Assembly (NCBI GenBank): GCA_043818055.1
Contig: JBDRGF010000003.1
Coordinates: forward strand, 1-56,564
Direction: 5' to 3'
Source of the DNA: Pseudomonadota bacterium
Lineage (GTDB): Bacteria; UBA10199; 2-02-FULL-44-16; JBDRGF01
DNA: 56,564 nucleotides
A model generated the notes under the pieces. That model ran no database searches. It saw nothing but the letters and a program-made list of their open reading frames with translations, and was not told the DNA's origin. This document shows, piece by piece, positions 4,545 to 37,617 of the stretch. Each line of letters opens with the position of its first letter. Positions within the stretch are counted from its first letter, which is position 1. The position numbers were made by a program, and so were the translations under genes.

Positions 4545-4815
4545 CGGCTTCCTCCAATTCAATTAATTCACCATTTTTCAAATTTTCAATACATTCATAT
4601 GTATCGGATAATATCTCTTTTTTTTGTTCTTCAGTTTCAGGATGATATTTCTCACACATTTTTAAAAATATTTTCTGAACGTCATTATTCCCATCACATA
4701 ATGAATAGATCTCAAATGCTGTCGTGTTAATTCCAATGCTATTCGAAAATAGATAAGCTTTCTTTAGTTTTTTATATTCATTGTTCTTCTTAATTGGTAT
4801 CAATTTAATATTCAT
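4534..4815 (-). CDS. PqqD-family stand-alone RiPP recognition element (RRE)
   Basis: 93 aa with INTTAFEIYSLCDG...I...M..KY...D...IENL..GELI pattern typical of PqqD; AAGGAG RBS; directly upstream of the rSAM genes. Confidence 0.88.
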   Translation of the reverse strand: MNIKLIPIKKNNEYKKLKKAYLFSNSIGINTTAFEIYSLCDGNNDVQKIFLKMCEKYHPETEEQKKEILSDTYECIENLKNGELIELEEADEL

Positions 4816-20095: not shown

Positions 20096-20874
20096 GCTCC
20101 AGGTGACTGACTACATTTACCTTCCATAAGTTTGTCACAGTCTTCATAATTATAGTTTGTATTATCGATTGAAATTATACCGGTCATCTTTTCGGAAGAA
20201 TTAGAGTAATTTATTGCTAGATCGAAACCTGACAAATGAGTTCCATTTAGAGAGGTCATGCTTAAATATTTATCCGAATCATTTGATGTATTACAAATTC
20301 CGGAGAAATCACTTGTTTTAAGATTATTCTCATATGAAATGTCAAAATTAAAGTCACATTGAAATTGTCCTTCTACGCTTACAAGTTGACCGCAAACATC
20401 ATCAAAATAATAACCATTAAAATCAAAAGCAAAATTGACTGTGCCAAACGCGTGATCTTCTTCATATTCATCAAAATACATATGAGAAGTAATCTTTGTT
20501 GAGTCGGCGGTTTGTACACAAATTTTTTCCATCATGTTATTTTTAACTTCCTCACAACTTAAATCCAAATATTTACCAAATTCTTTGTTGTACAATGCAT
20601 CATCGACGGATTGACGAATTATAACGACAACATTACTTTTATGTTTAACAGGAATTCCTGCATTTATTAGGTCTTTCGCATGTACGACAAGACCAAAGAA
20701 ATTTGAGAGCTCCTTGTCCGTTGGTGGATTTGTAGAGATATCAGCGGGAGGTTCAGTGAAAAGACCTACAGGACTTACAGGAGCACCACCCCCGCCTCCA
20801 CAGGATTGCAAGCATAGAATAACGACAGCCACACAGACATTTACTACAATTTTAAAATTCCCTTTCATCTTCAT
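20092..20874 (-). CDS. Lipoprotein of unknown function, Cys-rich
   Basis: Lipobox LQS-C followed by GGGGG; several downstream Cys; 4-bp overlaps with both neighbours. Confidence 0.8.
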   Translation of the reverse strand: MKMKGNFKIVVNVCVAVVILCLQSCGGGGGAPVSPVGLFTEPPADISTNPPTDKELSNFFGLVVHAKDLINAGIPVKHKSNVVVIIRQSVDDALYNKEFGKYLDLSCEEVKNNMMEKICVQTADSTKITSHMYFDEYEEDHAFGTVNFAFDFNGYYFDDVCGQLVSVEGQFQCDFNFDISYENNLKTSDFSGICNTSNDSDKYLSMTSLNGTHLSGFDLAINYSNSSEKMTGIISIDNTNYNYEDCDKLMEGKCSQSPGA

Positions 20875-21389
20875 TCCCCCTCCTTTATTATTGGTTTTTC
20901 GTTTATAACATCATCATTATATTTATTGATCGCGTCCTGAAATAACACCTTCGATTGTTTTTGCGGCTTGACTGAGCCTAAAACAATTCCAAGACCACCA
21001 AACATCGTTCCGATGCCACCCCACTCCATCAAATTATTTTTCTTGTCAGTTCCCACAGCTGTAAGAATGGCTCCAGCCAGATAAACCCCTAAACCAGCTA
21101 ACTGTAATCCAAGAGCCAGCTTTGATTTATCCACACCATTTTCTGCATATTCTTTTGCCGCCGGATTTGGTGAAACAGCATCCACAAGCCCCTTGTTATG
21201 ATAACCGGCTCTATATGTCGTTCCATCCCGATGATAAGCAAAACCTCCATCCGTATATGAACTCGTCACAAAACGGCTATCTTTGGGATAGTAGTTCGAT
21301 GTAATATGAGCACAGGAGGTGAATGCGAAGATGAGAACGATCGCAGCTACCAGGCATCTCGATATCGCTTTGCTTTTAACGTGATTCAT
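20871..21389 (-). CDS. Lipoprotein with two Gly-rich hydrophobic helices
   Basis: Lipobox FTS-C; LALGLQLAGLGVYLAGAILTAVG and WGGIGTMFGGLGIVLG. Confidence 0.75.
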   Translation of the reverse strand: MNHVKSKAISRCLVAAIVLIFAFTSCAHITSNYYPKDSRFVTSSYTDGGFAYHRDGTTYRAGYHNKGLVDAVSPNPAAKEYAENGVDKSKLALGLQLAGLGVYLAGAILTAVGTDKKNNLMEWGGIGTMFGGLGIVLGSVKPQKQSKVLFQDAINKYNDDVINEKPIIKEGE

Positions 21390-21391
21390 TT

Positions 21392-21643
21392 TTAAAAAAC
21401 TCCTTTCATAAATTTTTTCTCCTTTTTAAGCTTTCTTCTCTTGATGAGATAGATTATTGGAAATGAAAAGCAAAAAATAGTTATCACAAACAAAGGTAGA
21501 ATTGCCTGATCACCGCAAACAATTCCTGCATTTGCCCAACTCACACAATCCCTAGTTAAATATTCATGAAGTTCAGTTAGCCAGATTAAAGGAAATGCAA
21601 TAGCAGATATTTTCCAGCTTAAGGATACCTTATGTTCACTCAT
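21392..21643 (-). CDS. Putative immunity protein 4 (2-TM hairpin, C-x9-CGD loop)
   Basis: Start moved to ATG at 21643 (GGAGG upstream); CVSWANAGIVCGDQA resembles CARPYLYEAVCGDGA of 24435-24668. Confidence 0.72.
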   Translation of the reverse strand: MSEHKVSLSWKISAIAFPLIWLTELHEYLTRDCVSWANAGIVCGDQAILPLFVITIFCFSFPIIYLIKRRKLKKEKKFMKGVF

Positions 21644-22073
21644 ATGGCCTCCGTAGATAATTTCCGATTCTTTGTGCAGCAGCATCTGTTATTACTTCAT
21701 ATATTGTGGACGCCGGAGTAAGCGGAAAAGTGGTGTTCGTCAACCCCTGTGCCATACCACTCACAGCAGCCCCTCCAATTTCATTGTAGAATGTTGGATT
21801 GCTCAAGTAGGTGTTCAGTGCTGAATTATATATTTCAGATCCTACATTATACATCTGCTGTCCTCTGTACCAAAGCTGCTGGCCTGCGATTGTGGAAGCA
21901 GTTCCAACAACAGGGGCAATTTGTTGTGTGTAACCGGCTAAACCAGTGAGTCGTGTCCCAATATAGTTTACACCACCTGTGCCGTACGTAGCTGCAACTG
22001 CAAACATCCCTTCGTCGAGTCTGACGAAAACTAATGTTTGATAATGCTCTATGTTAGATGTTTTATTTAGCAT
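21636..22073 (-). CDS. Orphan toxin C-terminal module 3 (no RHS core remnant)
   Basis: AGQQLWYRGQQMY matches AGQQVWYRNQQVY of orphan 1; YLSNPTFYNEIGGAAVSGMAQGLT resembles the C-terminus of the main RHS. Confidence 0.65.
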   Translation of the reverse strand: MLNKTSNIEHYQTLVFVRLDEGMFAVAATYGTGGVNYIGTRLTGLAGYTQQIAPVVGTASTIAGQQLWYRGQQMYNVGSEIYNSALNTYLSNPTFYNEIGGAAVSGMAQGLTNTTFPLTPASTIYEVITDAAAQRIGNYLRRPYE

Positions 22074-22306
22074 TTCTTACTTTGCCCTTTATTCGTCTTT
22101 TGATTCTCCGATCCAGTAATTAAGAAATAAACACCTAATATTCCTAATAAACCAAAAAGTGTTAAAATTAATTTAGCACCAGGACCTGATAAAGGTGCGC
22201 TTACATACATAATTACAGATCCAGTAATAAAATAATGCGCTAATTGCCCTAAAAACATCACTATACATAATAATCCTAAATATAAATTTGATTTTTTAAA
22301 TTTCAC
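22067..22306 (-). CDS. Putative immunity protein 3 (2-TM hairpin)
   Basis: 79 aa, two TM helices; GAKLILTLFGLLGILGVYFLITG resembles GAKLVIGIYAFAAIFGLYLIITG of 24435-24668. Confidence 0.75.
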   Translation of the reverse strand: MKFKKSNLYLGLLCIVMFLGQLAHYFITGSVIMYVSAPLSGPGAKLILTLFGLLGILGVYFLITGSENQKTNKGQSKKC

Positions 22307-22981
22307 CTATCTCCCCCTTTCATTTTCAGTACTGTTTCGAGGCTGTTGAATATTCGAATTGTATCGTATTTCATAACGTGATGGATGATTTTTTATCAAT
22401 GAATTTATTCCACTAGAAATAGTTTCAACAACAAAATGAGTATAAAAACTGAGCCAGTTACTTGGTTGTGGAGCTAGACCAGTGCGAGCATTGCCCAAAC
22501 CAGCTGCCAAGCCTGTACCTGTACCAGAAATTACTTGTTGGCACGCCACAGGATTCGACAAACAAGTGCTAACAGCAGTCGTGACTACTGCTGGCCCATA
22601 TGCAACTGCTCCATATGCAGCACCTGCGGAGGCCGCTCCAACAAATAATCCTTGCCCCGCATTCACTATAGCACCTGGTGTCGTATCGATGATCGATGAT
22701 CTATTGCCTTCGTAATTGATCATCACAGTTGGATAACCAGCCACTCCATTGCCAAGTTCAACTATACTTTCAATCTTTCCATCGGAAATCTCAAACATCT
22801 GCGAACCAAACGGCCCATGTTGTCGATAATATTGAGCATCATATTTTTCATCTCCGGGCATAATTATTCTCAATGGCGTATTCCCCGCCATTCTCGCAAG
22901 TCCAAACGGATCAATAAAGTTGATCGGGTTGTTCATCACATAAAAGTGGGATACATATGTGTTTAATAAATTATTAATCAT
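22307..22981 (-). CDS. Orphan RHS C-terminal toxin module 2
   Basis: YVMNNPINFIDPFGLARMAG junction followed by a distinct Ala/Gly-rich C-terminal domain. Confidence 0.8.
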   Translation of the reverse strand: MINNLLNTYVSHFYVMNNPINFIDPFGLARMAGNTPLRIIMPGDEKYDAQYYRQHGPFGSQMFEISDGKIESIVELGNGVAGYPTVMINYEGNRSSIIDTTPGAIVNAGQGLFVGAASAGAAYGAVAYGPAVVTTAVSTCLSNPVACQQVISGTGTGLAAGLGNARTGLAPQPSNWLSFYTHFVVETISSGINSLIKNHPSRYEIRYNSNIQQPRNSTENERGR

Positions 22982-22986
22982 AATCT

Positions 22987-23223
22987 TTATTTATAATTTT
23001 CATCTTTCTTCTTCAGAAAACCCCTAACTAAAATTAATAGGAACACTAACCCCAAAATTATTAGGATAATACCAAGAACCTGCGCCTGAAATCCGACCGC
23101 AACAATTTTGCTCCACATCGAAAATGTGCTTGTTACAACTGTCCTAATCCCTCCCAAAATCAGAAAGACTGGCAGAAGGAAATAAAAGAATTGTTCATAG
23201 TTGAAGTGCCTTTTTTTATTCAT
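22987..23223 (-). CDS. Putative immunity protein 2 (2-TM hairpin)
   Basis: 78 aa, two TM helices, overlaps the stop of orphan 1. Confidence 0.72.
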   Translation of the reverse strand: MNKKRHFNYEQFFYFLLPVFLILGGIRTVVTSTFSMWSKIVAVGFQAQVLGIILIILGLVFLLILVRGFLKKKDENYK

Positions 23224-24433
23224 TTTTTATAGCCTCCTTTATAATAATTTCTGGATCTCCAAGGAAGAATCCTGCTGCTGAACCAACACCACCAGCAACA
23301 GATGACGGAGCTGTACCAGCAGGAAACCAACCTCCAACAAAGTCTGTTGTTATACGCAAGAAGCTTTGCCCCTGCCCTGACCCAGCCCAACTCATCAGGT
23401 TAACATATGCATTGTACCCAGCACTATAAACCTGCTGATTTCTGTACCAAACTTGCTGACCTGCAGCAGTTATTGCAGCACCAACAACTGGACCATATGT
23501 TGTATATACTGTCCTCGCTGCTGCGCCTATCGTCGGACTAACTGCCATTGCAGCTGCTCCTGTTGCTGCGGCGCCATACACACTGAAATAGGCGCTTGTT
23601 AAACTCTCTAAACTCTCCGATTTAACGTAGGCGGATGCGCTATAGTATCCTGCATTAAATAATTGATCTGATAAATAATTCTGCTCAATGTATCTTATAT
23701 ACTCAGCTACTGGTTTTAGAGGTATTGATGCAAGCGTTTGCCATGTTCCATCACTATTATTGCCGAAACCAAAGTTTCTATCGACAAAATCGACAACGGA
23801 CGAGCCATATGGATTATTAAGACTTGGCAGTGAGTTACCCGCCATCCTCGCCAATCCAAACGGGTCCACGAAGTTGATCGGGTTATTCATCACATAGGCG
23901 TAACGATTAGAGAACTCTGGCATTAAATCGAATGGATTGCCGCGTCGCTGCGCTCCTCGCAATGACAGCAGGGGTAACGGATCCTGTTGCATGAATCGAC
24001 CGAGTTCTGGGTTGTATGTGCGGGCTCTATAGTAATAGAGATTCGTCTCTGGATCGTATTCCCTGCCTGAATATAGATACGGATTATCGACTCCACTCTG
24101 TGCGAGCAGCGCACCGCCTGCGTCGTGAATCTCCACATCGCCGTAAGCTGAATAGCTGTATCGCTCTACAAGCGCACCCTTGCTGTCTGTGAGAGCTACG
24201 ATGTTGCCCGATGTGTCGGTGTGATAGTAATAGACGTCGTTATCCCGCTCCATTGAGATGATGGAGTCAACTCCTACCCCCTCCAACTCCCCCTTATAAA
24301 GGGGGAGCGACGTAAAAGTTGCAGATGTCTTGTCACTAACCCGCTCCTCAATGATATTCACACCGTCGCAGACGTAATATGTATTTCGATCGCTCATTTG
24401 CTTCGTCACCTTTTTTTTCATAGCTATCTTCAT
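23216..24433 (-). CDS. Orphan RHS module 1 (copied core tail + variant C-terminal domain)
   Basis: Near-identical copy of the main core tail (DGVN.IEE...NPYLY.GREYDPETNLYY.RARTYNPELGRFMQQDPL...NNPINFVDPFGLARMAG) followed by a different C-terminus. Confidence 0.88.
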   Translation of the reverse strand: MKIAMKKKVTKQMSDRNTYYVCDGVNIIEERVSDKTSATFTSLPLYKGELEGVGVDSIISMERDNDVYYYHTDTSGNIVALTDSKGALVERYSYSAYGDVEIHDAGGALLAQSGVDNPYLYSGREYDPETNLYYYRARTYNPELGRFMQQDPLPLLSLRGAQRRGNPFDLMPEFSNRYAYVMNNPINFVDPFGLARMAGNSLPSLNNPYGSSVVDFVDRNFGFGNNSDGTWQTLASIPLKPVAEYIRYIEQNYLSDQLFNAGYYSASAYVKSESLESLTSAYFSVYGAAATGAAAMAVSPTIGAAARTVYTTYGPVVGAAITAAGQQVWYRNQQVYSAGYNAYVNLMSWAGSGQGQSFLRITTDFVGGWFPAGTAPSSVAGGVGSAAGFFLGDPEIIIKEAIKNE

Positions 24434-25760
24434 TTTACTTTTTCTCGTTATTGTCTTTTCTCTTAATTCCCGTGATTATCAAGTAAAGACCGAATATAGC
24501 AGCGAAAGCATATATTCCTATAACGAGTTTTGCACCATCTCCACATACAGCCTCATATAAATAAGGTCTTGCACATCCAGTTTTTAAATAGATATGATAC
24601 GTTATTGGAAATGTTGGTATCAATAAAACTCCAATTATAATTGCTAACCAATTTCTTTTTGTATTCATATTAATCCTTTCTGGGCTGAATTGTATTCATA
24701 TGTTCACTTACATTATTTCTCAGAATAAAATTATTATTTTCATTGATATAGCTTTTAATCATATCTTTTGATAAATCGATAGAGGTAAAAAATTCGACAT
24801 ATCGTTCTATTGTAAAAGATACCCAGTAACTTATTGCGTCATTAGACGTTGGTGGTAATCCAGTTTTTTGGTCGGTCAACCCTGCCAATACTCCTGAAAC
24901 AACCCCCTTTGCCACCTGATTATAAGTCTGCGAATTCTGCAAATAATTAGACAATATCTTCTCACCAGCATTTAAGATTATAGGCGCTGTCCTCAACCAT
25001 GCATTGTCTGCAATATCAATCGCGCTTCTTGTAGCGAAATTCATCCGCGACGCGCCATATGAAATGACACTTCCGCCTCCGCTCGCTGCTATAGCAAACA
25101 TCTCCTCTTGTGTTGGCATGAGAAAGTTAGCGGTTCCATACACAGCATGATTAATGGTGTTTAAACTATATGAGAAAATATCCGTTGATCTCTGTGCATT
25201 CTCAAATGAAATCCTTGCAGCCTCATTAGTCCAATCGCTCAGATATTGCATCACATCGCCGTTGTAAGTTGCACCCCCCGCCATCCTTGCCAGTCCAAAC
25301 GGATCCACGAAGTTTATCGGGTTGTTCATCACGTAGGCGTAGCGGTTCAGAGAATCCACAAACCCGAGCGGATCCTGTTGCATGAAGCGACCTAACTCTG
25401 GATTGTATGTGCGGGCTCTGTTGTAGTAGAGATTCGTCTCAGGGTCATATTCCCTGCCTGCATAGAGATACGGGTTATCAACGCCGCTCTGTGCAAGTAG
25501 CGCGCCACCAGCGTCGTGAATTTCTACTTCGCCGTAAGCTGAATAGCTGTATCGCTCTACAAGCGCACCCTTGCTGTCTGTGAGAGCTACGATGTTGCCC
25601 GATGTGTCGGTGTGATAGTAATAGATGTTGTTATCGCGCTCCATTGAGATGATGGAGTCAACTCCTACCCCCTCCAACTCCCCCTTATAAAGGGGGAGCG
25701 ACGTAAAAGTTGCAGATGTCTTGCCGCCCACTTGCTCCTCTATCACATTCACTCCATCAT
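23840..25760. repeat. Direct repeat of the RHS core tail (~23840-24360 and ~25280-25760; short third copy ~22885-22940)
   Basis: Long identical runs, e.g. gccgtaagctgaatagctgtatcgctctacaagcgcacccttgctgtctgtgagagctacgatgttgcccgatgtgtcggtgtgatagtaatag in both copies. Confidence 0.9.
24435..24668 (-). CDS. Putative cognate immunity protein 1 (2-TM hairpin, C-x9-CGD loop)
   Basis: 77 aa; starts 1 nt after the RHS stop; AAGGA RBS; two TM helices. Confidence 0.78.
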   Translation of the reverse strand: MNTKRNWLAIIIGVLLIPTFPITYHIYLKTGCARPYLYEAVCGDGAKLVIGIYAFAAIFGLYLIITGIKRKDNNEKK

Positions 25761-28700
25761 AGATAAATGTCGTCGTGACATTCGAGACGCTCTTTGAGAT
25801 GCGGCGGCCAAGGGCATCGTACTGATAGCTGGCTACTTGTTGATCGGTTGCTTTATCCTTCACTTCGATGAGATAATTTCTGTAATCGTATGTGTATTTG
25901 AACCGATCATCATCCTTCATGTTGCCGTTCACATCGTAGTGATAATCTTTCTGTTCGGCGGTTTCAGTTGTGACCGCCGTCAAATAGGCATTCATATCAT
26001 TAGATATGAATGTGGTAGTGAGCTTCTTTGTCGGATCCTGAGAATCGAGGCGCTTCGTCTTTGTGACCCAGTTGTGGAGCGAATCCATGGCGAAGGCCTC
26101 GCTTGTGCTGTACGTGCCTGATTGTGGATTGGAAAAATTCGTCTTCGGGACGCTCAAATCATACGCAACCTGAGTCAATCTTGATAAGCTGTCGTATGAA
26201 TAAGCGTTCCCTTTATTCGCATTGTGTACAAAATCATCATATAGCCTGTTGTCAGCTTTATCATATGCGGATTCAAATCCGGCGATGATCGATTGATCAG
26301 CAAATTGATTGATATGCTTGATCGTGCGTTTTAGTTTATCATATTCTTTCGTAACCGATGTGCCGTTCAAATATTCCATCTTGCCGACCTGCCCCCTGTT
26401 TATCCATGTCATCTGTGAAAGTTTTCCGATCTTCGTGTCATCTATGTTTGTCACCCTGTCGATGGTGTCGTGCGTGAAATTCAAAACCTTGCCTGATGGA
26501 TATGTGAGCCTCTCCCGCCTCCCTTTGATATCGTACTTGCTTGTCACACTCTTTCCATTTTGCTCCTCTTTCAGGAGATTCCCAAGGGAGTCATATGTCT
26601 GCAAGACCGTAGAGATCGTTTGATCTGAATCGTCCATATTCACGGCTTTGACCATGTTGCCGACGCCGTTATATTCAAAAAGCTCGCTGCCGATATAAGT
26701 GCTCCCCAGTTCGATTCTCTTTTGCGTCAGATAATTTGAACTATCATAGACAAAATTGACAATAAATCCAGCCGGATCTTGAGTTTCTATCACATTGGAA
26801 TTTCTGTCATATTTGCTTTGATATGCCGATCCATCCGCCATAATAGTCTTGATGCGCCTGTTCAAAGCGTCATATGTGAATTCGGTTGTATGGTTCTTAG
26901 CGTCTGTGATTGATGCAAGACGGGAATTTGTATCCCACGCATATTTTGTCACTATTTCACCTGTTTTGCTGCCGCTGCCTGCTCCATTATCAGTGAGCTC
27001 CTGAATTTGCTGAATCAAGCGGCCTAAACCATCATATGAGAATCGTGTGATGTTGCCCTCCCCCTGATTTGGGCCTAAATCGACTCCCAGTGTATCATTT
27101 GAATCGCTCGTATAAAGAAGGTTTCCGCGGCTGTCGTAGCGATGCTGCTTCATATGACCCAAGTTATCCGTTAATGTGACAGGGTGATTGAGGGAATCAT
27201 ATATAATGGAGGATGCATATTCAACTTTGGTGTTTGTGATATCATCGACCTCCCGGCTGATCTGCTTTGAAATATTGCCGTTGTCATCGTATGTCGTTTC
27301 GATTTCGTTACCCTTGGGATCGATAGATTTTGTCACTCTGTCTAAACCGTCGTAGGTATAGGTTGTGGAATTTCCAAGGGCATCTACTAGTTTTGATATC
27401 TGATTATTGCCGCTATATTCGTACTTGGTCGTGCGTTTGCCTGTGAGCGTTCCAGCATCGAGAACAGCCTCCTCCTTCTGTACCAATCTGCCAATTTCAT
27501 CGTAGAGCAAGCTAATATTTTGCAAGGAGACCTCTGTGCTCGATTGACCATCGGGTTTGCCCTTTTTGAGAATAGCTGTTCTATCGCCACGATCATTGTA
27601 GGAGTACTCTGTTTTACTGCCTGAAGCGTCGATCTCCTGTATCAATCTGTCGAATCCGTCATAGATGTACTTAGCCTCATTTCCCTCGCCATCTTCGATG
27701 GCGATTCGGTTTTTGTTGCCGTCATAAGCAATCGTGAAAGTCGAGGCGTCCTGAGAGCCGAATCCATGCGTTGTCTGGTAGGGCAGATCCCTTTCATCAT
27801 ATTTTATAGCGATCGAATTTCCTTCCGGCTGTATGATGCGGGTCAGGTTCTCGTTGGCATCGTAGCGATATTCTGTGAGCACATTTTTATTTTGGGCTAC
27901 CTCCTGAGTGCGTGCGGTTAATCGGTTCAGCATATCATATTTGAGTTGCGTTGTTATTGTGGGATTCCCGTCAATCGGATTGCCTTTATCGTCCAAATTA
28001 GGTTCGTCGATCTGAATTGGGTTGTCATTGCCGTCGTATTTGATGGTGCGCACAATGTTAAATGTAGAGGGCATCTTTTCAGCAACTACCTGATTCAATG
28101 GATTGATCGTATATTCATATCGATTGCTATTTCCATCGACGAAGGCTGTGATGTTTCCAACGGAATCATGCTCATAGAGATTTACAACATTTTCCTTTCC
28201 TGCTCCCTGAATCACTTTTGCCAGATATCCACTGTTATCGTACTGATATTCATCGCGTGAACTATCCGGATCTTCTTTCACCGTTCTTTGTCCGAATTGA
28301 TTGTATTGATAGCGATAGCTCAAAAGCTCCACAGTGCCATCGGCGCGAGTGATAGCAGGAAGATCTTTGCGCAACATATTCCCTGCGATCTGATTTGTCT
28401 TTTGGTCATCGTTGATATCGCCCATGCTTATCGTCAATCCTGTTAGCAGCGTTTGAGCGATGTTTTCGGTTACACCCATTTTTGCGGCCAAAATAGCAAC
28501 TGTCGAATTTTCCTGATAATCGAAATGGAACGTTGAAGTTGCATTTCCTGGCTCTGTGATCTCCTTAATCTGATTATAAACCGGTTCATAGGCGTATTTC
28601 GTGATTAAAGGAGAACCACCTCTGACAGAGTCTGGTATTTTCCTCTCTTCAATTCGATTTGCGACATAGAGCTTATCTACCGCGGGCTCACCTGTATTCA

Positions 28701-31700
28701 TATTTTGATAGCGATACTCCGTGCGATTTCCCTCTGGTTTAGTTTCCGAGGTCACTAAACCATCCAAATTATACGTATATGAAGTAACAAAGCTTGCCGG
28801 ATCGTCAAAGCGCATTCCCCGAGTAAACTCAGTTACCTTGAGAGGATTGCCCTGACAGTTAAAACTTAGTCCTTTTTGATTGCCATTGCGATCGATCACA
28901 GTTGTACGGCTCACCTCCATGGATGGATCGGATTCTGGCGTACAGGTGTAAAATTCGCGCTTTCTATAATATGTGAAATCAAAAGCCTTGCTTCCCAAAT
29001 ATTGCTTCACCACGCGATCGGTCGAGCTGTATTCGTTCTTGAGATATGTCTGGCCAGCCGGATCTGTGACGGTGAGCAGGTTATGTTCATCTGAATATTT
29101 GTATCGGGTAATTTTACCATCGGGATAGCCATCGACTATCGGCGAATGAACAGCGATCAGATCGCCTTTATCGTTATAATCAAAACGCACCGTGCGACCT
29201 GAAAAATCGATGATGCTGGTAAGCTTGCCGGGCGCATTATATTGATAATCGATAACTCTTCCAAGGCTATCCGTTACGCTGTCCAAAACCGTCTCATCAC
29301 CTACTTTTGTATATTGAAAGGTCAATTGGTTCTGGTTTCTGTCTTTAATAGATGAAATGAAGCCATCTGTGCGATATTCGTAGATCGTACCATGCGAATC
29401 TCTTATTTGATAGGTGCCATCATCCCTTTTGATCAGACGATCGAATCTTCCCGCTGGCGCTACATATCGATTTGCTTTGAGTGTATAATCGTCATATCTG
29501 GCATCGCCATCGAATCTGCGAATTTTGAGTCCTGCATCCATCTCTACGAGTCGCATGTTGTAATTGTGATCCCAACCATATCCCAATGGACCATCGTAAT
29601 CGAGGCGACTGCGGTATGTTCGTTTGAATTCATAATCGATACCGCGTCCCGGTATTTTTAGATCAGTCGCAACCTGCAACAGATCGCCGCTGAATAGCAT
29701 CACCGGATCGGCGACGGTATTGTTCGCTGTAATATTTTGCATCGCCCCCTGGACTAGTGCTATCGGCGTATCATCCTGTTGATTGAAGCCCAGAGGCATG
29801 TTTATCGTCGTAGGAGGTGGAGGTGTACTACCTCTTCCAGTAAAGGTATCTTCCGATGAAGATAAATGAAATGGTTCAAAGGTTCTGTTTACAGGGTTAG
29901 CCGCAACAACGGGAGAGCTGACCGGTAAACCTATATTTGTAAAAGATGTTCCTCCAGCTATATCGGAGGTCACAGAATTTCCATAAACATCATTATAGCT
30001 CGGAAACTGATTAGATGAATTCAGAGGATTGGTGTTGATAGGTGAAAAACTTGATGATGAGCTCATAGAAATATCAAAACCTAATCCGTAACCATTACTT
30101 GCACCGCCATCCAAGGCACCACTACTGCCGTCACCATTTCCAGAGGTACCCGTGTAATTATTGCCAAATCCACCTCCGGAATATCTACTGCCAAGCTTAG
30201 CATTGTAGAGGCTATTTCCTCCATCTGTGCTCACAAATGTTCCACCATTGCCTATGCTGATGCAAAGTCTGTTGCTCATGCAACCGTTATTGCCGACCTC
30301 TCCGGTTTCAATCGGCTGTCCATGGCTCGGGGTTGTGCCTGAATTGATCCCAATCCGTCCTCTCCAACCTTGATCGTCATCTATATCCGGTGATGACCCC
30401 GTATATGAGAAGCTCACTACATACGCGTCGCTTCCACCCGAAGCAAACTCTTGTGAAAGCATTCCACCTGCGGCAACAAGCCCTACATATAGACCTGCCG
30501 ATGGATTTCCCGTTATTACAGCAGTGAGAGTTCCAGTAACTACACCGATAACGACCTTGAGGATCTTTTTCGCTATACTTCCCATTCCCATATACTCTTC
30601 ATTGCAAAGAGCGTTGTTGCGCGCAAATATGTAGTGATTTATGCCATCTTCCATCGGATCGCGTGTTATGAAGCGGCCTGTTTTAGCATCATAGTAGCGG
30701 GCACCGTAATAGAAGAGGCCAGTTTCATTGTCATATTCCTTCGAATTAAAGAGATATTTGTTTTTGGTCAATCCAAGTCGGAAATTGACATTGCCGAATG
30801 GATCGTAACGGAGAGTTTCTGTAACTCTTCCCTTGTCATCCGTTGTATGAATGAGGTTGGCCATTTCATCTAGATGATTGAACTGAAATTCCTCGTTCTC
30901 AAACGCTGCGATCCTCCGTCCGCCAAGATAGATAAAGAGCCTTTCAATTTCACCCTTTCCATTGAATTCGACCATGGGCTCTGTGGATTTTCCATAGATA
31001 TAATATTGTTTCGTCTTCCCGTTGACTTTCTTTTCCGTTCTACGTGAGGCGTAATCATATGTGAATTCCAGATTCAGATTTGAGTTCTTTTCATCCTTCA
31101 ATGTTGTCTTGGTCAAGCGATCCTGAAAATCATACTCAAAGGTTTTGTGAAATGATTCTTTTCCGGCTTTTTTCTCCACTTCATCGATGAGGTTCCCGCG
31201 AATATCATATTTTTGGGATCTCTCTACTTGAGATCCAACCCTGACCTTTGTCATCATGCCAGTTGTATATTCATATTGTTCATTTTTGTATGCGTCCGAA
31301 TACGATATTCTGTTTCCATCTCCATCATAAGAATATGATTGTATATTGTATGGAGTATTTTCCTCCGGTCGAAAATATCTTGCCTCTATCAATTGCTTTA
31401 GCCCATCATATTTGAATTCAACCTTTGAGCCGTCCAGATAAGTCATTGAACTCTTGTTCCCCCACATGTCATATGTGTAGGTCAATTGATTTATAATCTC
31501 GTTCTCTCGCGCAATTTGTATTTCAATTACCTTTCCAAATGAATCGTATGTGTAGCTGTTCACTATTCCGTTGCCGTATTTTATTTTCTGCAGATTTCCT
31601 GAATCGTCATAGCCGATTTCAGCAATGAGTTTCCCTTGAGTAGATCCCATTCGGATTTCACTGACGCGGCCATGATCATCGGTCAGGTAATAAACTATAG

Positions 31701-34700
31701 TACCATCGGGATAGCCGATCCAATATGTTGTTCCGAAGCCGTCTTCACCATACTGGATGGAATCGGATAATTCAGTCCCCGGAATATCCTGAGATATTTT
31801 ATTCAAAATTCCATCTGGAGAATATTTAAACTCTGTACGGCCAAAGGCATCTATGATTGCGGAAACATGTTGATCCGCATATTCAACCTTGTAATCATTA
31901 AGCTCTCCACCACCGATTCCCGGATAATCAACATTGGTCAAACGATGATCTGTATCGTAGTTAAATTTGGCAGTAACAGAACCCAATACTGAGTCTTGCA
32001 AAACGAGACTATCCAGCAAACCATTCTCATTTGAAATATTGTTCATTTCGACTTTATCGCCGTTAGGATAAACTCTTCCTTTTAATCTCTGATAATGGTC
32101 ATAGGTATTTTTAGTAATCATTCCTTCTGGAGATTTGATCTTGATGAGATTCTCAAATTCATCAAACTGATAGTCGGTTGTCACAGGACTTAAATTTCCA
32201 CCCGGATATTGAACTGAACGGATCACCTTATCCTTGGCATCGCGATAGTGTGTGGCATATAATTGACCATTATAGAGGATATCGAGCTTATGGACGAAGC
32301 TGTTATTCAAAGTGGTTGGTTCATATGAATAGGTGACATCCTTACCACCAGGATAGGTTATAGATCTTACACGATCCAGACCATCATATTTAAAATTATA
32401 ACGCTTCTCACCCGGAAAGACTATGGTTGTTGCCATTTTATTCTGTCCGTACGAGTAGCGTGTCTCATTCTCACCCTTCTTCAGGAGAGTTAATCGGTTT
32501 ATTCCATCGAAATACCTTGTTGTAATACGATGTTGATTGCGAGCTGAATCAAATATATCGGTAGAGATTTTATTTTCCTGAGTTGAGTTGTCCAATCGGT
32601 ATCTCTCACCATATTGATGTGCAACATATGAATTATTGGGATAATCAACCCGAGTCAACTGACCGACATCATTGTATTTATAGTTAATCGTTCTACCATC
32701 CTGATCAGCAATGCTAATGAGCTTGCCTATGTTCTCATCATATGTGAGAGTTGTCTCTCCGGATTCATTCTTTATTTTATGCAGGAATGTTCCTTTATAA
32801 TATTCAAATTCATCCTTAGAATTATCGAGATTTGTTTCCTTGACGATATTTCCATCCGCATCAAAACAATATTCCTTGATGATCTCCTCATCCTGCGCAT
32901 TTAGACGAACGCTGATTCTATTTATTTTTCGCTTTGAAAGCGCTGCACCTGAACATATATCTGCACCAGTGCTGTGATAGATGATCTCTATTGTATCTTT
33001 TCCTCCATCTGCATTTCTTTTTGTTCTCGTTACTTTACGAACTATCTGTTTGAGACTATCTGCAAGGATGGGATCTTTGATTCCCTGGGCATCATCATAT
33101 TTGAATGTTATTATGTTCCCAAGCTCGTCAGTGTAGGAGGATACCCTTCCACTATCATCGTATGTATAACTTTTTTCGAAACTCACTCCTTTTTCTGTTG
33201 TTATCACCTTTTCCAATCCATCTACGACCTCCCTGCCATCCCTTTTCGATATCTTCCATGTATAATCATCGACAACTGCATTTGCCTGGCCGGGGTTGAG
33301 CTCCCTTCGTATGAGAAGCGGGATTTTATCGAAGTGATTGACGGAAAAGATGATACTATACTTCATGTGTTGCATCACTTTCTCAAAATCGCTCAATTCA
33401 TTGGAAAGTTTTATTATTTTATGAATATACTTATAGACAGAACCATCACTCTTATAAATCTTTGTTACAATTCCTTCATTCTCAGAGCGATCAATCGTGA
33501 TATATTTTTGATAGTAAATTGAAGCATCCCTATCATCGGGAAACTCTGTCGTCAGGATTTCACTATGAGCGATATCGCCATAGCCTTTGACTGCCTCATA
33601 TCGCATGACGCCGCCGCTTGGATATCGGATTTCCACAAAGGTGTCTGGAACCTTTTGATTGAAATTCCAGTGCCGGACAAGTGGCAGGTTTGATTCGGCA
33701 GGCGAATACCTGATCGTGGTTTCGCGGCCCGCAGGGTCGATTATTTTACCGATTCGATTAGCGCTGCTATAATGATACCCCCACTTCTTGTTATTGGGCA
33801 TTTGAAGATAGACGATGTTGTTCGGGTCAAAGCTCATATCAATATTGCGATCCACAGTGTCTTTTATGCGCATCCAATAATCCTTTTGATATGAGTTTAA
33901 TGAATGATCATATGTGATCGAATGATCATGTTCATCCCTCTCTTCCGATAACATGTAGAGGCTGATATCCCAATGAGGGATGTGGTCGATGCGGTTTTTG
34001 TAAAAATAAATTCCATATTTAGTATATATCGAGCAACATTTAGGGCCTGCTCCACCATTCGGGCATTTACAGCCCATGCCGGATTCACAAGATCCATCGC
34101 TGCACCCATCTATAACATCTATATATTTTGTCATCAATTGTGAGTAGATGGTGTATTTTTTAAAGCGATTAAAAATATACTTTCCCCCGTCGATTTCGTT
34201 CAAGATTAGACGATCAAGATTTAATTTATGCGCGTCATTATAGACAAGAGAGACAGGAAACGCTGATTTTATAAGCTCTACCGTTCCTGTGATACCGATG
34301 CCTTTTTTCAAATTTTCTTGGGCGAAAGCATTCGTGCTGAAAAAATCATCTGCTGTTTGCATTGGTGTGTCGACTCTGTCATTTCCAGAATAAAACTCCA
34401 GGGCTCTTTGATTATAACCATCTGTATAGCCCATTCGACGGCCTGTTTTATCAAAGACATCGTAGCTTCCATCTGCTTTTAAAAGGAACACCATCATCTC
34501 AGTCGGATTTTCAACGTCCATTCGTGAAAAGGGCATGACATTGCGAAAGACAACGGCTGCAACGTATTTGCCACCTGCGAATATCCAAGTATCATTGGGA
34601 GGTGTCCATACCAGGTTATCGCCATTTGATTTGATCGCTCCAAGAGGATAGATTTCTTCTTTAAAATTCATTTCCTGAGGAGTGCCGAGAAAATACTCCT

Positions 34701-37044
34701 GAAAATATCTTTTATCCCTATGATCCAATAGTTCAGAGGCATTGTTGGCAGTAGAAATTTCCATTTGCAGTTCATTTTCTGAAATTTCCTGCATACGAAA
34801 TTGTTCGATGTTGGCCATAGAGCCTGCCTCACACCCAACAGTGTTCACTCTTTCACTATCTTTCTTTAAAAAATCCCCCCAAAGCCCGTAATTAAGCGCT
34901 GCGCAAACGAGATGCGCATTTATATTTTCACCAACATAGTATTTATCATTGCTCACCGGATATTTCAGTGTCCCGCTTAGGGTGTTTTTCCATGTCCCTT
35001 CTGTTGTGCTTGTTGTACCTATATCATCAGTCTCTGTCGAACTTTCATCATCTTTAACAATTTCACCCAATACCTTATTTTCTGGTTCTTCAGGTTCTTC
35101 AGGCTCTTCTGTACTTTCTTCAAAAGTCACAATCTCTGTAAACTTCTTCGGATTTTCATATCCTGTGAAGATACTCTTATCTATCACAACATCCCTGTTT
35201 TCCGTGGAGCGCGGTGAGACATATGATCGTGTTATCTCAACATCCATTCCTCCCTTGCCCGGCAGCACCAAATCTGTATAGCTCAAATTAAGACTTCCAT
35301 CGGCCAGATTAACAGCTTCACCGTTGGAATAATACTGAAATGGAGTATATGCATTTGAACTGGTTTGTGATCTCGCTGTCATTGGGATTATCAATATCAC
35401 AATGACGATTAGATATTTATATAATGGAATAAATTTTTTAAAACGGAATGATTTGAAAAATGAAACTAATGTTTTAATTTCGACTTTGATCAAACTCAAT
35501 ATCAATAATGCTGTGAAGAAAAATATCGCAATCCAGATCGGAACATCTCCCCAAAATGTGTAGAGAGAAAAAGTATGATATGGAATGAGACTTGCGTTGA
35601 ACCACTTGGATCCGTTTTTGGTATCCAGCTCTTCAAGGACTTTTCCGGATGGAGAAACGACTGTTGAAATGCCCTGATTGGCAACTCTGATGAATGAAAC
35701 CCGATTTTCTATTGATCTGAATATAGAATGAGCTCTGTGTTGCAAAATACCTGAAGATTTCGCATACCACCCATCATTTGAGAGATTCACAATAAATTTG
35801 GCACCCTCAACCACCCATCTCCTTGTGAGCGGAGGAAAGATATCCTCAAAGCATATCTGCACACCAAATTTAATGCCGTTTAAATAAAAGAGCTTAAATT
35901 TTTTGCCGGGTTCGGTGTCTATATCCGATGCGAATGCATATTTGATGAACGGAAATTCATCGGGAATATACTCTCCAAGTGGGACGAGATGCGTCTTGTC
36001 ATAGCTGTTTCTTATATTATCCTGTTCGACGAGCAACGCGCTATTCCATTGTTTTTGCATATCTTTGGGAAAGAGTGTCATGCTTCCTAGAAGTATTGGT
36101 GAACTCAGACTCGGTACGATATTTGATGGCATCACTTTTAAATCGCGGCTGATATGGTAAGGTATGGCTGTCTCTGGCCATACGATCATATCCGGACCTA
36201 AGTCTGCGGCCTCTAGTGTCAGAGTTTTATATCGCTCTATGATTGATTCGCTATATTTTGGATCCCACTTTTCCTTTTGTGAAATATGACCGGGAATTCC
36301 AATAATTTTTATCGCCTGATTATTAGAGTTAAAATGCTCGACCTGGGCGATACGAAGCACACCATAAGTGAGGTTAACAATTAAAAGAATGGCAACAACG
36401 ACAAAACTACGTCGAGCTAATCTCATCTCATTGAGTACGAATAATCGAATTCCTTCATAAATCAGAACATTGACAGTTATAATCAAAAACGAAATCCCCA
36501 AAACACCAAAAATATCCGCCGATTGAATTAAATAGAGATAGCGCTGTTGGCTGTAACCCAGATTGATCCATGGAAATCCTCCCAGCGGGAAAAAATTCGT
36601 GAGATATTCGAAGAATATCCAGGCAAGGGGGAGAACTAAGAAAAGTGGGAATTTAGTGCGTCTATTTATGTGTATAGCTGATGTAAATGCCAGGCCTATG
36701 TATAGAGCAATCATAAAGACCACAAACCCGAGACACGCCAGGCTCGCTATGGAGGAATACCCTGCACTGTGATGAAGCGCCGAATATATCCACGATAAGG
36801 AAAACGAAGAAAATACGATCCCAAAAACAAAGCTTTTTTGAAAAATCCCCTTTAGAGAACTTCCATGTATTGAGAATAATAACGGCAGTAAACCGACCCA
36901 GGCCAAAAATGCGAGGTTTGGAATTGATTTGCCCAAAATTACAATAGGAAATGAAAGGGCTAAGACTATTCCAGAAAGAAGAGGCAAAAGTTTCTTTCTC
37001 AACAAAACCAGTTCTAATTTTCGCGCAATTAGCGCTTTTAACAT
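24670..37044 (-). CDS. Fusion of apolipoprotein N-acyltransferase (Lnt) and a double RHS-repeat protein with a variable C-terminal domain (4124 aa)
   Basis: One uninterrupted ORF. N-terminal ~520 aa carry Lnt motifs (GGFPW..LGYSQ, WPETA, YDKTHLVPLGEY, QICFEDIF, NLSNDGWY, RSIEN...RVANQGIS). Two DUF6531-like starts, YD repeats and two RHS-associated cores follow. Confidence 0.9.
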   Translation of the reverse strand: MLKALIARKLELVLLRKKLLPLLSGIVLALSFPIVILGKSIPNLAFLAWVGLLPLLFSIHGSSLKGIFQKSFVFGIVFSSFSLSWIYSALHHSAGYSSIASLACLGFVVFMIALYIGLAFTSAIHINRRTKFPLFLVLPLAWIFFEYLTNFFPLGGFPWINLGYSQQRYLYLIQSADIFGVLGISFLIITVNVLIYEGIRLFVLNEMRLARRSFVVVAILLIVNLTYGVLRIAQVEHFNSNNQAIKIIGIPGHISQKEKWDPKYSESIIERYKTLTLEAADLGPDMIVWPETAIPYHISRDLKVMPSNIVPSLSSPILLGSMTLFPKDMQKQWNSALLVEQDNIRNSYDKTHLVPLGEYIPDEFPFIKYAFASDIDTEPGKKFKLFYLNGIKFGVQICFEDIFPPLTRRWVVEGAKFIVNLSNDGWYAKSSGILQHRAHSIFRSIENRVSFIRVANQGISTVVSPSGKVLEELDTKNGSKWFNASLIPYHTFSLYTFWGDVPIWIAIFFFTALLILSLIKVEIKTLVSFFKSFRFKKFIPLYKYLIVIVILIIPMTARSQTSSNAYTPFQYYSNGEAVNLADGSLNLSYTDLVLPGKGGMDVEITRSYVSPRSTENRDVVIDKSIFTGYENPKKFTEIVTFEESTEEPEEPEEPENKVLGEIVKDDESSTETDDIGTTSTTEGTWKNTLSGTLKYPVSNDKYYVGENINAHLVCAALNYGLWGDFLKKDSERVNTVGCEAGSMANIEQFRMQEISENELQMEISTANNASELLDHRDKRYFQEYFLGTPQEMNFKEEIYPLGAIKSNGDNLVWTPPNDTWIFAGGKYVAAVVFRNVMPFSRMDVENPTEMMVFLLKADGSYDVFDKTGRRMGYTDGYNQRALEFYSGNDRVDTPMQTADDFFSTNAFAQENLKKGIGITGTVELIKSAFPVSLVYNDAHKLNLDRLILNEIDGGKYIFNRFKKYTIYSQLMTKYIDVIDGCSDGSCESGMGCKCPNGGAGPKCCSIYTKYGIYFYKNRIDHIPHWDISLYMLSEERDEHDHSITYDHSLNSYQKDYWMRIKDTVDRNIDMSFDPNNIVYLQMPNNKKWGYHYSSANRIGKIIDPAGRETTIRYSPAESNLPLVRHWNFNQKVPDTFVEIRYPSGGVMRYEAVKGYGDIAHSEILTTEFPDDRDASIYYQKYITIDRSENEGIVTKIYKSDGSVYKYIHKIIKLSNELSDFEKVMQHMKYSIIFSVNHFDKIPLLIRRELNPGQANAVVDDYTWKISKRDGREVVDGLEKVITTEKGVSFEKSYTYDDSGRVSSYTDELGNIITFKYDDAQGIKDPILADSLKQIVRKVTRTKRNADGGKDTIEIIYHSTGADICSGAALSKRKINRISVRLNAQDEEIIKEYCFDADGNIVKETNLDNSKDEFEYYKGTFLHKIKNESGETTLTYDENIGKLISIADQDGRTINYKYNDVGQLTRVDYPNNSYVAHQYGERYRLDNSTQENKISTDIFDSARNQHRITTRYFDGINRLTLLKKGENETRYSYGQNKMATTIVFPGEKRYNFKYDGLDRVRSITYPGGKDVTYSYEPTTLNNSFVHKLDILYNGQLYATHYRDAKDKVIRSVQYPGGNLSPVTTDYQFDEFENLIKIKSPEGMITKNTYDHYQRLKGRVYPNGDKVEMNNISNENGLLDSLVLQDSVLGSVTAKFNYDTDHRLTNVDYPGIGGGELNDYKVEYADQHVSAIIDAFGRTEFKYSPDGILNKISQDIPGTELSDSIQYGEDGFGTTYWIGYPDGTIVYYLTDDHGRVSEIRMGSTQGKLIAEIGYDDSGNLQKIKYGNGIVNSYTYDSFGKVIEIQIARENEIINQLTYTYDMWGNKSSMTYLDGSKVEFKYDGLKQLIEARYFRPEENTPYNIQSYSYDGDGNRISYSDAYKNEQYEYTTGMMTKVRVGSQVERSQKYDIRGNLIDEVEKKAGKESFHKTFEYDFQDRLTKTTLKDEKNSNLNLEFTYDYASRRTEKKVNGKTKQYYIYGKSTEPMVEFNGKGEIERLFIYLGGRRIAAFENEEFQFNHLDEMANLIHTTDDKGRVTETLRYDPFGNVNFRLGLTKNKYLFNSKEYDNETGLFYYGARYYDAKTGRFITRDPMEDGINHYIFARNNALCNEEYMGMGSIAKKILKVVIGVVTGTLTAVITGNPSAGLYVGLVAAGGMLSQEFASGGSDAYVVSFSYTGSSPDIDDDQGWRGRIGINSGTTPSHGQPIETGEVGNNGCMSNRLCISIGNGGTFVSTDGGNSLYNAKLGSRYSGGGFGNNYTGTSGNGDGSSGALDGGASNGYGLGFDISMSSSSSFSPINTNPLNSSNQFPSYNDVYGNSVTSDIAGGTSFTNIGLPVSSPVVAANPVNRTFEPFHLSSSEDTFTGRGSTPPPPTTINMPLGFNQQDDTPIALVQGAMQNITANNTVADPVMLFSGDLLQVATDLKIPGRGIDYEFKRTYRSRLDYDGPLGYGWDHNYNMRLVEMDAGLKIRRFDGDARYDDYTLKANRYVAPAGRFDRLIKRDDGTYQIRDSHGTIYEYRTDGFISSIKDRNQNQLTFQYTKVGDETVLDSVTDSLGRVIDYQYNAPGKLTSIIDFSGRTVRFDYNDKGDLIAVHSPIVDGYPDGKITRYKYSDEHNLLTVTDPAGQTYLKNEYSSTDRVVKQYLGSKAFDFTYYRKREFYTCTPESDPSMEVSRTTVIDRNGNQKGLSFNCQGNPLKVTEFTRGMRFDDPASFVTSYTYNLDGLVTSETKPEGNRTEYRYQNMNTGEPAVDKLYVANRIEERKIPDSVRGGSPLITKYAYEPVYNQIKEITEPGNATSTFHFDYQENSTVAILAAKMGVTENIAQTLLTGLTISMGDINDDQKTNQIAGNMLRKDLPAITRADGTVELLSYRYQYNQFGQRTVKEDPDSSRDEYQYDNSGYLAKVIQGAGKENVVNLYEHDSVGNITAFVDGNSNRYEYTINPLNQVVAEKMPSTFNIVRTIKYDGNDNPIQIDEPNLDDKGNPIDGNPTITTQLKYDMLNRLTARTQEVAQNKNVLTEYRYDANENLTRIIQPEGNSIAIKYDERDLPYQTTHGFGSQDASTFTIAYDGNKNRIAIEDGEGNEAKYIYDGFDRLIQEIDASGSKTEYSYNDRGDRTAILKKGKPDGQSSTEVSLQNISLLYDEIGRLVQKEEAVLDAGTLTGKRTTKYEYSGNNQISKLVDALGNSTTYTYDGLDRVTKSIDPKGNEIETTYDDNGNISKQISREVDDITNTKVEYASSIIYDSLNHPVTLTDNLGHMKQHRYDSRGNLLYTSDSNDTLGVDLGPNQGEGNITRFSYDGLGRLIQQIQELTDNGAGSGSKTGEIVTKYAWDTNSRLASITDAKNHTTEFTYDALNRRIKTIMADGSAYQSKYDRNSNVIETQDPAGFIVNFVYDSSNYLTQKRIELGSTYIGSELFEYNGVGNMVKAVNMDDSDQTISTVLQTYDSLGNLLKEEQNGKSVTSKYDIKGRRERLTYPSGKVLNFTHDTIDRVTNIDDTKIGKLSQMTWINRGQVGKMEYLNGTSVTKEYDKLKRTIKHINQFADQSIIAGFESAYDKADNRLYDDFVHNANKGNAYSYDSLSRLTQVAYDLSVPKTNFSNPQSGTYSTSEAFAMDSLHNWVTKTKRLDSQDPTKKLTTTFISNDMNAYLTAVTTETAEQKDYHYDVNGNMKDDDRFKYTYDYRNYLIEVKDKATDQQVASYQYDALGRRISKSVSNVTTTFIYDGVNVIEEQVGGKTSATFTSLPLYKGELEGVGVDSIISMERDNNIYYYHTDTSGNIVALTDSKGALVERYSYSAYGEVEIHDAGGALLAQSGVDNPYLYAGREYDPETNLYYNRARTYNPELGRFMQQDPLGFVDSLNRYAYVMNNPINFVDPFGLARMAGGATYNGDVMQYLSDWTNEAARISFENAQRSTDIFSYSLNTINHAVYGTANFLMPTQEEMFAIAASGGGSVISYGASRMNFATRSAIDIADNAWLRTAPIILNAGEKILSNYLQNSQTYNQVAKGVVSGVLAGLTDQKTGLPPTSNDAISYWVSFTIERYVEFFTSIDLSKDMIKSYINENNNFILRNNVSEHMNTIQPRKD
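35480..37044 (-). other. lnt: Lnt domain of the fusion protein
   Basis: Nitrilase-fold Glu-Lys-Cys triad motifs all present, plus the N-terminal TM bundle and final TM helix. Confidence 0.92.
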
Positions 37045-37433: not shown

Positions 37434-37595
37434 AAAAACCTTCTCCCCATCCGTCCAAAACGCTCTCCTCCATCTGCCCAAAAGCACTCACCCCCTTCCG
37501 CCCTACGGGCACCTTCCCCCGTCAAGGGGGAAGGGCAGAGAGGAAAATGTCATTGAGGGCACCTTCCCCCGTCTCAGCCAGAGGCTGATCTGCAT
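37434..37595. repeat. REP-like palindrome cluster, second copy of the 5786-5970 element
   Basis: GGGCACCTTCCCCCGTCAAGGGGGAAGGGCAGAGAGGAAAATGTCATTGAGGGCACCTT...CAGCCAGAGGCTGATCTGC. Confidence 0.8.
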
Positions 37596-37617
37596 CGAGA
37601 TGAAAAATGACACGGTT

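Follow-up and report, generated by a model that had tools for sequence, protein, structure and literature searches.

An Lnt paralog joined in one conserved frame, through a predicted internal signal peptide, to a double-RHS toxin

In Bradyrhizobium japonicum, FbcH is a precursor made up of cytochrome b, an internal signal peptide and cytochrome c1, and it is cut into two proteins. Fusions of the lipoprotein acyltransferase Lnt are also known, e.g. the mycobacterial Ppm1 (Rv2051c / BCG_2070c), where Lnt is joined to a polyprenol-monophosphomannose synthase (PMC3850990). YD-shell toxins exported by Sec have been reported (PMC13018210), as has Rhs autoproteolysis (PMC8765631), and the TraA/TraB layout and the MYXO-CTERM tag have been described, including the one-frame MXAN_5598 (PMC11980579). 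The gene considered here lies on contig JBDRGF010000003.1 of assembly GCA_043818055.1; the whole stretch analysed, of 56,564 nucleotides, is referred to as the window. In this gene an Lnt sequence continues without interruption into a toxin with two RHS modules. Taken singly, the parts have known counterparts (Lnt fusions, Sec-exported YD-shell toxins, Rhs autoproteolysis), and the pairing of Lnt with RHS is apparently undescribed. A preliminary description of the window knew of no such fusion, and none was found in the open-licence literature, subscription papers and supplements (e.g. the architecture tables of toxin surveys) being outside that scope.

The gene is a single open frame of 4,124 codons on the minus strand (window 24670-37044) with no stop between Lnt and RHS, as first described, and the ATG at the lnt start is preceded by a strong ribosome-binding site (-11.3 kcal/mol). 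On balance it probably encodes a precursor that is cut into two products within a Sec-exported polymorphic toxin system, the Lnt being an accessory enzyme for the lipid-anchored parts of that system. The parts of the gene are as follows (aa, amino acids).

24670..37044, minus strand: whole fused gene, 4,124 aa, in the order Lnt, internal signal peptide, first RHS module (RHS1), linker, second RHS module (RHS2), variable C-terminal domain (open reading frame; Pfam and family-model matches)
35485..37044, minus strand: Lnt paralog, aa 1-520, with seven helices, nitrilase domain and eighth transmembrane helix (profile matches, predicted structure)
36172..36174, minus strand: putative catalytic Glu291, E267 in Escherichia coli (alignment to E. 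coli and Pseudomonas aeruginosa Lnt)
35995..35997, minus strand: putative catalytic Lys350, E. coli K335 (alignment)
35851..35853, minus strand: putative catalytic Cys398, E. coli C387; the following residue is Phe instead of Tyr (alignment)
35905..35964, minus strand: active-site arm, aa 361-380; it is shortened relative to housekeeping Lnt and has no counterpart of the conserved Phe (alignment)
35488..35544, minus strand: final Lnt transmembrane helix, aa 501-519 (helix reading and predicted structure)
35416..35487, minus strand: basic cytoplasmic loop or n-region, aa 520-543, with no start led by a ribosome-binding site (sequence)
35368..35415, minus strand: h- and c-region of the internal signal peptide, aa 544-559, with a predicted signal peptidase I cut after Ser559
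30580..35367, minus strand: first RHS module, aa 560-2155, with the family N-terminal motif, a weak DUF6531 match (aa 575-611), YD barrel and core
30445..30564, minus strand: hydrophobic, Gly-rich hairpin at about aa 2161-2200, behind the first core; a Gly/Ser-rich linker that reaches aa 2445 starts with it
25291..29709, minus strand: second RHS module, aa 2446-3918, with DUF6531, YD repeats and a canonical two-Asp core
24670..25290, minus strand: variable C-terminal domain, 206 aa, presumed toxin (from its position; it differs between relatives)

Past the last Lnt helix the chain runs through a basic stretch to aa 543 and a hydrophobic helix (aa 541-560) to A-R-S/Q at 559/560, with a net charge of +5 in the 16 residues that precede the hydrophobic part. 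This is the succession of basic loop, hydrophobic stretch and signal-peptidase-like site that the preliminary description had noted. It had also noted that no in-frame ATG precedes the hydrophobic stretch, and there is indeed none between M329 and M555; nor does a ribosome-binding site precede the in-frame TTG codons at aa 514, 516 and 518 (-0.3 to -2.3 kcal/mol). An internal restart in the linker between the window's Lnt and toxin was considered and rejected, as no start there is led by a ribosome-binding site. A promoter and terminator scan gave counts at chance level, and no repeat was found at the junction. The chance of a stop-free linker is 0.04-0.05; this was not used as evidence because the signal peptide part is under its own selection.

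Could the join be an assembly error, or the recent private loss of a stop codon? The sequence across the junction was inspected for an indel or a lost stop by comparing four sequencing runs with the window (five small-share runs were left out). A contig of 1,146 nucleotides from run X1 (34861-36006) and one of 460 nucleotides from run X3 (35073-35532), an RNA-library run of another study, both span the junction with 0 differences and 0 gaps; the X3 contig, being from an RNA library, attests the presence of the sequence and is not proof of a single transcript. X2 and X5 do not bridge the junction, and one X5 contig carries 11 loose letters before 35503. An artefact might be argued from the bridging DNA contig, which has a read depth of only about 5 and may come from the source sample itself, and from the slips and stops that occur elsewhere in the gene in related assemblies. 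But the contig of the independent study has no differences, and three other lineages bear the same fusion at about 50% identity, so that an artefact or a recent private stop-codon loss has a negligible probability, and an assembly error at the junction was rejected. The fusion is real; it is also old and conserved, and not a private read-through.

How is the fusion distributed? The toxin family is found in 12 of 93 genomes of the phylum: two have the fusion, one has an Lnt remnant, and eight of the nine others were read. Among 40 related genomes, one (G010, of a different family in the same order) has Lnt in frame over more than 3,100 codons with the same junction. Three more assemblies of the G010 species have an identical junction, and two of them lack a one-base slip near the Lnt start that is seen in the G010 contig. 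Protein searches added P0002 (3,995 aa; 1 new match among 3,774 candidates) and P0003 (994 aa, continued by P0006, whose contig has the same length). Relatives were inspected for separate lnt and rhs genes, and the three other lineages keep the two joined. Between the window, G010 and P0002, identity is 42-55% over Lnt, 53-59% over the RHS barrels and 26-41% over the linker, which varies in length by whole codons. The chromosomal site differs: the fused gene follows a sensor kinase in the window and prfA-prmC-murA in G010. In some relatives' assemblies a T run has slipped by one base or a stop interrupts the gene (L032 at about 4545-4551; L039; L040; P0003/P0006), others of the same species being intact. 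A further protein, P0004, has another Lnt running via a hydrophobic, Cys-containing stretch into a HEAT-repeat protein; it is a single sequence and may represent a lost stop.

A fifth member of the fused group, P0005 (also read from contig G082:C121), has lost the Lnt and kept the first helix and the signal peptide. Its opening 19 residues score 21.3 bits on a profile of the Lnt first helix, against at most 7.6 bits among 14,688 hydrophobic control windows; a short hydrophobic stretch, a basic loop and then the signal peptide follow. This is an in-frame deletion of the enzyme in which the start codon was retained. The deletion (L060 557-770) appears to join the Phe-Pro at the end of the first-helix motif to the last-helix region, and the last helix of G010 begins with a similar dipeptide; microhomology at the deletion is a guess. 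A quick, midpoint-rooted tree built from 17 rows of the first barrel places P0005 with the four Lnt-bearing rows in a single clade (support 100) nested in the unfused family. P0005 is the first branch within it, and the join thus arose once.

Could the join be a tolerated read-through? A stop may have been lost by chance, cleavage would make the join harmless, the join would persist because the toxin gene borrows the lnt promoter and start, and the extra Lnt would have been retained on grounds that have nothing to do with the toxin. In G082 the lnt start codon and first helix outlasted the deletion of the enzyme, which is in keeping with such a read-through, as are P0004, where Lnt is joined to a HEAT-repeat protein, and a start signal ahead of the signal peptide in the G010 species, likely the trace of two genes. 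Two observations speak against it. An unfused member of the fused Lnt clade did not turn up in a search that scored 8,000 candidates and is weak and incomplete, as it missed P0003: none of its 91 hits was an unfused Lnt of more than 35% identity (the next matches are at 33-35%). None was found on plasmids. The Lnt also stays with the toxin at different chromosomal sites, though it is redundant with the housekeeping copy. Tolerated read-through is improbable, and the cleaved precursor is preferred.

Where did the internal signal peptide come from? In eight unfused genome loci and six database proteins of the toxin family a hydrophobic N-terminal leader stands just ahead of the motif that follows the window junction. 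By positional homology the internal segment corresponds to the signal peptide of the toxin itself. By simple rules, the h-region is preceded by a net charge of +3 to +5 at all five junctions, each of which also has small residues at -3/-1. The gene for signal peptidase I is present in all four genomes tested. As unfused kin have an N-terminal signal peptide at the same position, signal peptidase I probably frees the toxin, and a cut after Ser559 is predicted with good confidence. The preliminary description took Lnt to end in the cytoplasm, so that the downstream chain would be re-exported. Both termini of E. coli Lnt are cytosolic (PMC5500890), and therefore an extra ninth helix would point outward and can re-export the chain; the match of the segment to the N-terminal signal peptide of unfused kin agrees with this topology. 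As to other routes of export, the type VI secretion sheath protein VipB was found in 0/4 genomes, PF04717 was not found in the window's genome (G000, 93.6% complete), and no PAAR/VgrG domain was found in the fused protein.

The preliminary description had also considered an Lnt-anchored toxin. [quoted passage not shown] The A-R-S/Q site of the window and its short h-region of 11 residues are less typical than those of the relatives, and G082 keeps two hydrophobic stretches before the signal peptide after loss of the enzyme domain; both would suit an anchor. Three of the four relatives' junctions, however, have Ala at -1, as do the unfused members, and the catalytic residues, needless for a pure anchor, are kept in all four Lnt-bearing copies. 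An uncleaved anchor appears quite improbable against these observations, and cleavage into two products remains the preferred reading.

The Lnt part itself is well recognized. Pfam places LNT_N at aa 24-194 and CN_hydrolase at aa 268-476, the model TIGR00546 lnt matches with 299 bits against a cut-off of 132.9, and the predicted structure (mean pLDDT 86.6) has Lnt structures as all of its best Foldseek matches (TM-score 0.75-0.84 by target). The window's triad is E291, K350 and C398, and its E343 equivalent is E358; the triad and the equivalents of W237, E343, E389 and W415 are retained in 4/4 fused copies. Of the further residues that E. coli Lnt requires (G145, V339, G342, R352, Y388, E389, F416 and arm F358), the window retains the equivalents of G145, V339, G342 and E389, and has Tyr at the F416 position, like 28 of 31 housekeeping copies. 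Y388 is Phe in all four fused copies and in 3/31 housekeeping copies, 11 conserved columns are altered in all four, and the R352 and arm F358 positions of the window are not alignable, the arm being shorter. Lnt had been called intact-looking, which holds for the triad; the arm and several near-invariant positions have changed.

Is this the Lnt of the cell? A second lnt of G000 adjoins prfB on contig C39, where it is truncated by the contig end, and G010 has a complete one in the same place. The prfB-side copy of G000 has 33% identity to the fused copy and about 48% on average to its stand-alone kin. In a quick tree the four fused Lnts form their own clade (support 100, stem 1.11) apart from the relatives' 31 stand-alone Lnts. 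The fused Lnt is a divergent extra copy, and not the housekeeping enzyme. It is under purifying selection: between G000 and the G010 species the C-terminal half of the fused nitrilase domain is 55% identical and the housekeeping copies 52% over the same columns, with four-fold degenerate sites saturated, so that the fused Lnt is selected as strongly as the housekeeping Lnt. The fused Lnt is probably active as an enzyme.

The RHS part consists of two cores in tandem, which the earlier reading did not have. The predicted structure of aa 1060-2230 matches Rhs cores. The first core ends with Glu2150 in place of the usual second catalytic Asp; the second is a canonical two-Asp core directly ahead of the variable C-terminal domain. 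All four Lnt-bearing members have Glu for Asp in core 1 together with a Gly-zipper hydrophobic hairpin (window 30445-30600), and the hairpin is not in P0005; the predicted structure has low confidence at its position (pLDDT <50). The unfused P0010 also has Glu in the first core. P0002 carries a TNT-family domain at the C-terminal position. The window's C-terminal domain has no useful Pfam match, and the best Atlas match (0.89, with low recognition) is a lead only. Tandem RHS cores behind a signal peptide are a property of the whole family (window 25291-35367, G005, G008, G017, G031, G054, G063, G092), and no description of tandem Rhs cores was found in the open-licence literature. Four further YD-repeat genes, on G000 contigs C59, C62, C70 and C88, are unrelated to the family N-terminus.

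Downstream of the toxin four small membrane-protein genes, putatively immunity genes from their position, alternate with three orphan C-terminal modules, and further genes follow.

24435..24668, minus strand: 77-aa two-helix membrane protein, candidate immunity gene from its position
21392..24433, minus strand: region of three orphan C-terminal modules (23216-24433, 22307-22981, 21636-22073)
22987-23223, 22067-22306 and 21392-21685, minus strand: small membrane-protein genes, one after each orphan module
20092..21389, minus strand: two genes with lipoprotein-type signal peptides (172 aa, caught by a pattern scan; 260 aa, with a lipobox read by eye), candidate Lnt substrates
10706..20095, minus strand: 3,129-aa surface protein with Ig/FlgD/OmpL47 repeats, whose C-terminal end consists of Gly-Cys, a hydrophobic helix and a basic tail
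9414..10709, minus strand: beta-barrel and OmpA-domain protein of TraB-like layout, overlapping the stop of the giant gene

The orphan module at 23216-24433 has an insertion inside its core, similar in size to a short repeated element upstream of lnt (window 37470-37600), which is matched by contigs from many other places in all four runs. In G000 the lipoprotein-type genes are located between the toxin and the giant gene; in G010 such genes lie immediately upstream of the latter. The giant surface protein is present in exactly the same 12/93 genomes as the toxin family (in G014 by weak fragments only), patchily over eight families; no NCBIfam model matched its Cys-helix-basic tag. The barrel/OmpA gene follows the giant gene in G000, G005, G054 and G063, and the two form a single frame in G082:C23. 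Its score on the TraB model, 92.6, is below the cut-off of 700. As a marker of the system it was rejected: the family is in 79/93 genomes, and only its closest matches follow the toxin. In G005 and G054 a protease-like gene lies between toxin and giant gene (L033 182-2743; L084 2004-4964), and the G005 copy ends in the same Cys tag. No description of a two-barrel RHS toxin system with a giant tagged surface protein was found in the open-licence literature. At the far end, window 80-4815 contains a transporter-like gene, a 93-aa gene and three open reading frames whose CxxxCxxC motifs are those usually seen in radical-SAM enzymes (labels assigned by eye).

What might the fused Lnt acylate? With a precursor cut as proposed, the acceptor might be something other than a lipoprotein that Lnt normally ignores, for example a new free N-terminus within the toxin (the Gly that would open the hairpin behind core 1) or the giant partner's Cys tag. 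The long stem branch, the 11 columns changed in all four copies, the shortened arm and Phe for Tyr388 beside a kept triad are what a re-purposed acyltransferase might display, and arm residue F358 has been linked to the acceptor step of Lnt (PMC6971011). Hairpin and Asp-to-Glu core occur in 4/4 Lnt-bearing members and not in the Lnt-deleted sister; the enzyme responsible for lipidating the MYXO-CTERM cysteines has been described as unknown (PMC11980579). The co-variation of the hairpin, however, falls on a single tree branch and therefore counts as one event, and the unfused P0010 has the Glu too. The hairpin would be enclosed in a barrel at a distance from the membrane, and with Glu the first core may be unable to cut; all 12 genomes have the giant protein, ten of them without a fused Lnt. 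Such a change of acceptor is rather unlikely. A bolder version is best called unlikely: in an undescribed contact toxin system, comprising the double-barrel RHS, the giant Cys-tagged surface protein and its barrel/OmpA partner, one branch would have taken up an Lnt paralog and turned it into a dedicated acyltransferase, produced in the same chain as the toxin. This would attach a fatty acid to a non-lipoprotein acceptor, e.g. the Gly-started hairpin in the first barrel, and so arm it for membrane entry.

The preferred course, a cleaved precursor with Lnt as accessory enzyme, would be the following. A duplicated lnt came, once and in an ancestor, into frame with a downstream double-RHS toxin gene that bore a signal peptide. 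Translation would begin at lnt, and once the eight Lnt helices are inserted their C-terminal end would face the cytoplasm. What was formerly the toxin's signal peptide would then act as a ninth, internal signal and thread the 3,560-residue toxin into the periplasm. A signal peptidase I cut behind Ser559 would set the toxin free, with Lnt staying in the inner membrane. There Lnt might serve as an accessory acyltransferase, expressed with the toxin and beside the housekeeping enzyme. Its acceptor preference would have shifted, and its most likely substrates would be those parts of this system that are lipid-anchored; as a substrate these parts are a best guess, and a tentative one. The frame, its conservation, the single origin, the paralogy, the purifying selection and the positional homology of the signal peptide form the established part of this course.

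Several observations weigh against it. The G342 position is Ala, Met and Ala in the three other fused copies, and the change G342A inactivates E. coli Lnt (PMC5500890). The arm has 18, 18, 10 and 14 residues in the fused copies against about 20, without the conserved Phe. Of 82 conserved columns these copies retain only 59-68 and the stand-alone Lnts 73-82, a comparison that is biased because the columns were defined on the latter, housekeeping set. One fused gene is split downstream (P0003/P0006). The G010 species has a strong ribosome-binding site and an ATG ahead of the signal peptide, so that the toxin may also be made alone there; the internal ATG of G082 is without a ribosome-binding site. 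Lipoproteins occur as well in loci without a fused Lnt, and in G082/P0005, where Lnt was lost, the toxin frame persists together with a homologue of the 172-aa lipoprotein (29%, E 4e-15); these lipoproteins therefore need no private Lnt, and as a marker of a need for Lnt they were rejected as not specific. The preliminary description had proposed a polyprotein yielding membrane Lnt and released RHS 1:1. The fusion behind that proposal is real and conserved; the Lnt is an extra copy, and a 1:1 yield is not obligatory: Lnt was deleted in one lineage, and in another a strong ribosome-binding site with an ATG stands ahead of the signal peptide.

Encoding a bacterial membrane enzyme and a secreted toxin in a single precursor, linked by an internal signal peptide, is here a natural arrangement that has been conserved, and several stages of it can be seen: an internal start present (the G010 species), absent (the window), and the enzyme deleted (G082). 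A selected, divergent Lnt with a remodelled arm is a handle on acceptor choice by Lnt, and the pairing suggests that toxin delivery may include a lipid-modifying step. The locus also directs attention to a toxin system of the phylum, in which the two-barrel RHS is always found with a giant tagged surface protein.

How does the locus compare with the systems named at the outset? With the Lnt of E. coli and P. aeruginosa (PDB 5XHQ, 5N6H, 5N6M) the fused copy shares the fold of eight helices and nitrilase domain, the E-K-C triad, the equivalents of W237, E343, E389 and W415 and presumably the cytosolic C-terminus. It differs in being an extra copy on a long branch, with a shortened arm and Phe for Y388, that continues into a signal peptide and a toxin; G342 is changed in three of the four fused copies. 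The Rhs toxins (RhsA, Tse5, TccC3) and the Sec-exported teneurin-like toxins have in common with it the YD barrel, a two-Asp core before a variable C-terminus, small downstream genes and orphan modules, whereas here there are two tandem barrels, Glu for the second Asp in core 1 and an N-terminal Lnt, and PAAR/VgrG and a type VI secretion sheath were not found. The myxobacterial TraA/TraB and MYXO-CTERM proteins resemble the neighbouring genes: in both, the gene of a large surface protein with a Cys-helix-basic tag overlaps a barrel/OmpA gene downstream of it (one frame in G082:C23, cf. MXAN_5598), but the tag here is without a model match, TraB is below its cut-off, and the pair accompanies a double-RHS toxin. 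Ppm1 likewise has Lnt and a second domain in one frame; there Lnt is a working lipoprotein enzyme and its partner is biosynthetic, whereas here the partner is a toxin that would be re-exported via an internal signal peptide. In FbcH, finally, the two products are subunits of one complex, whereas here they would be an enzyme and a toxin, of which the enzyme is dispensable.

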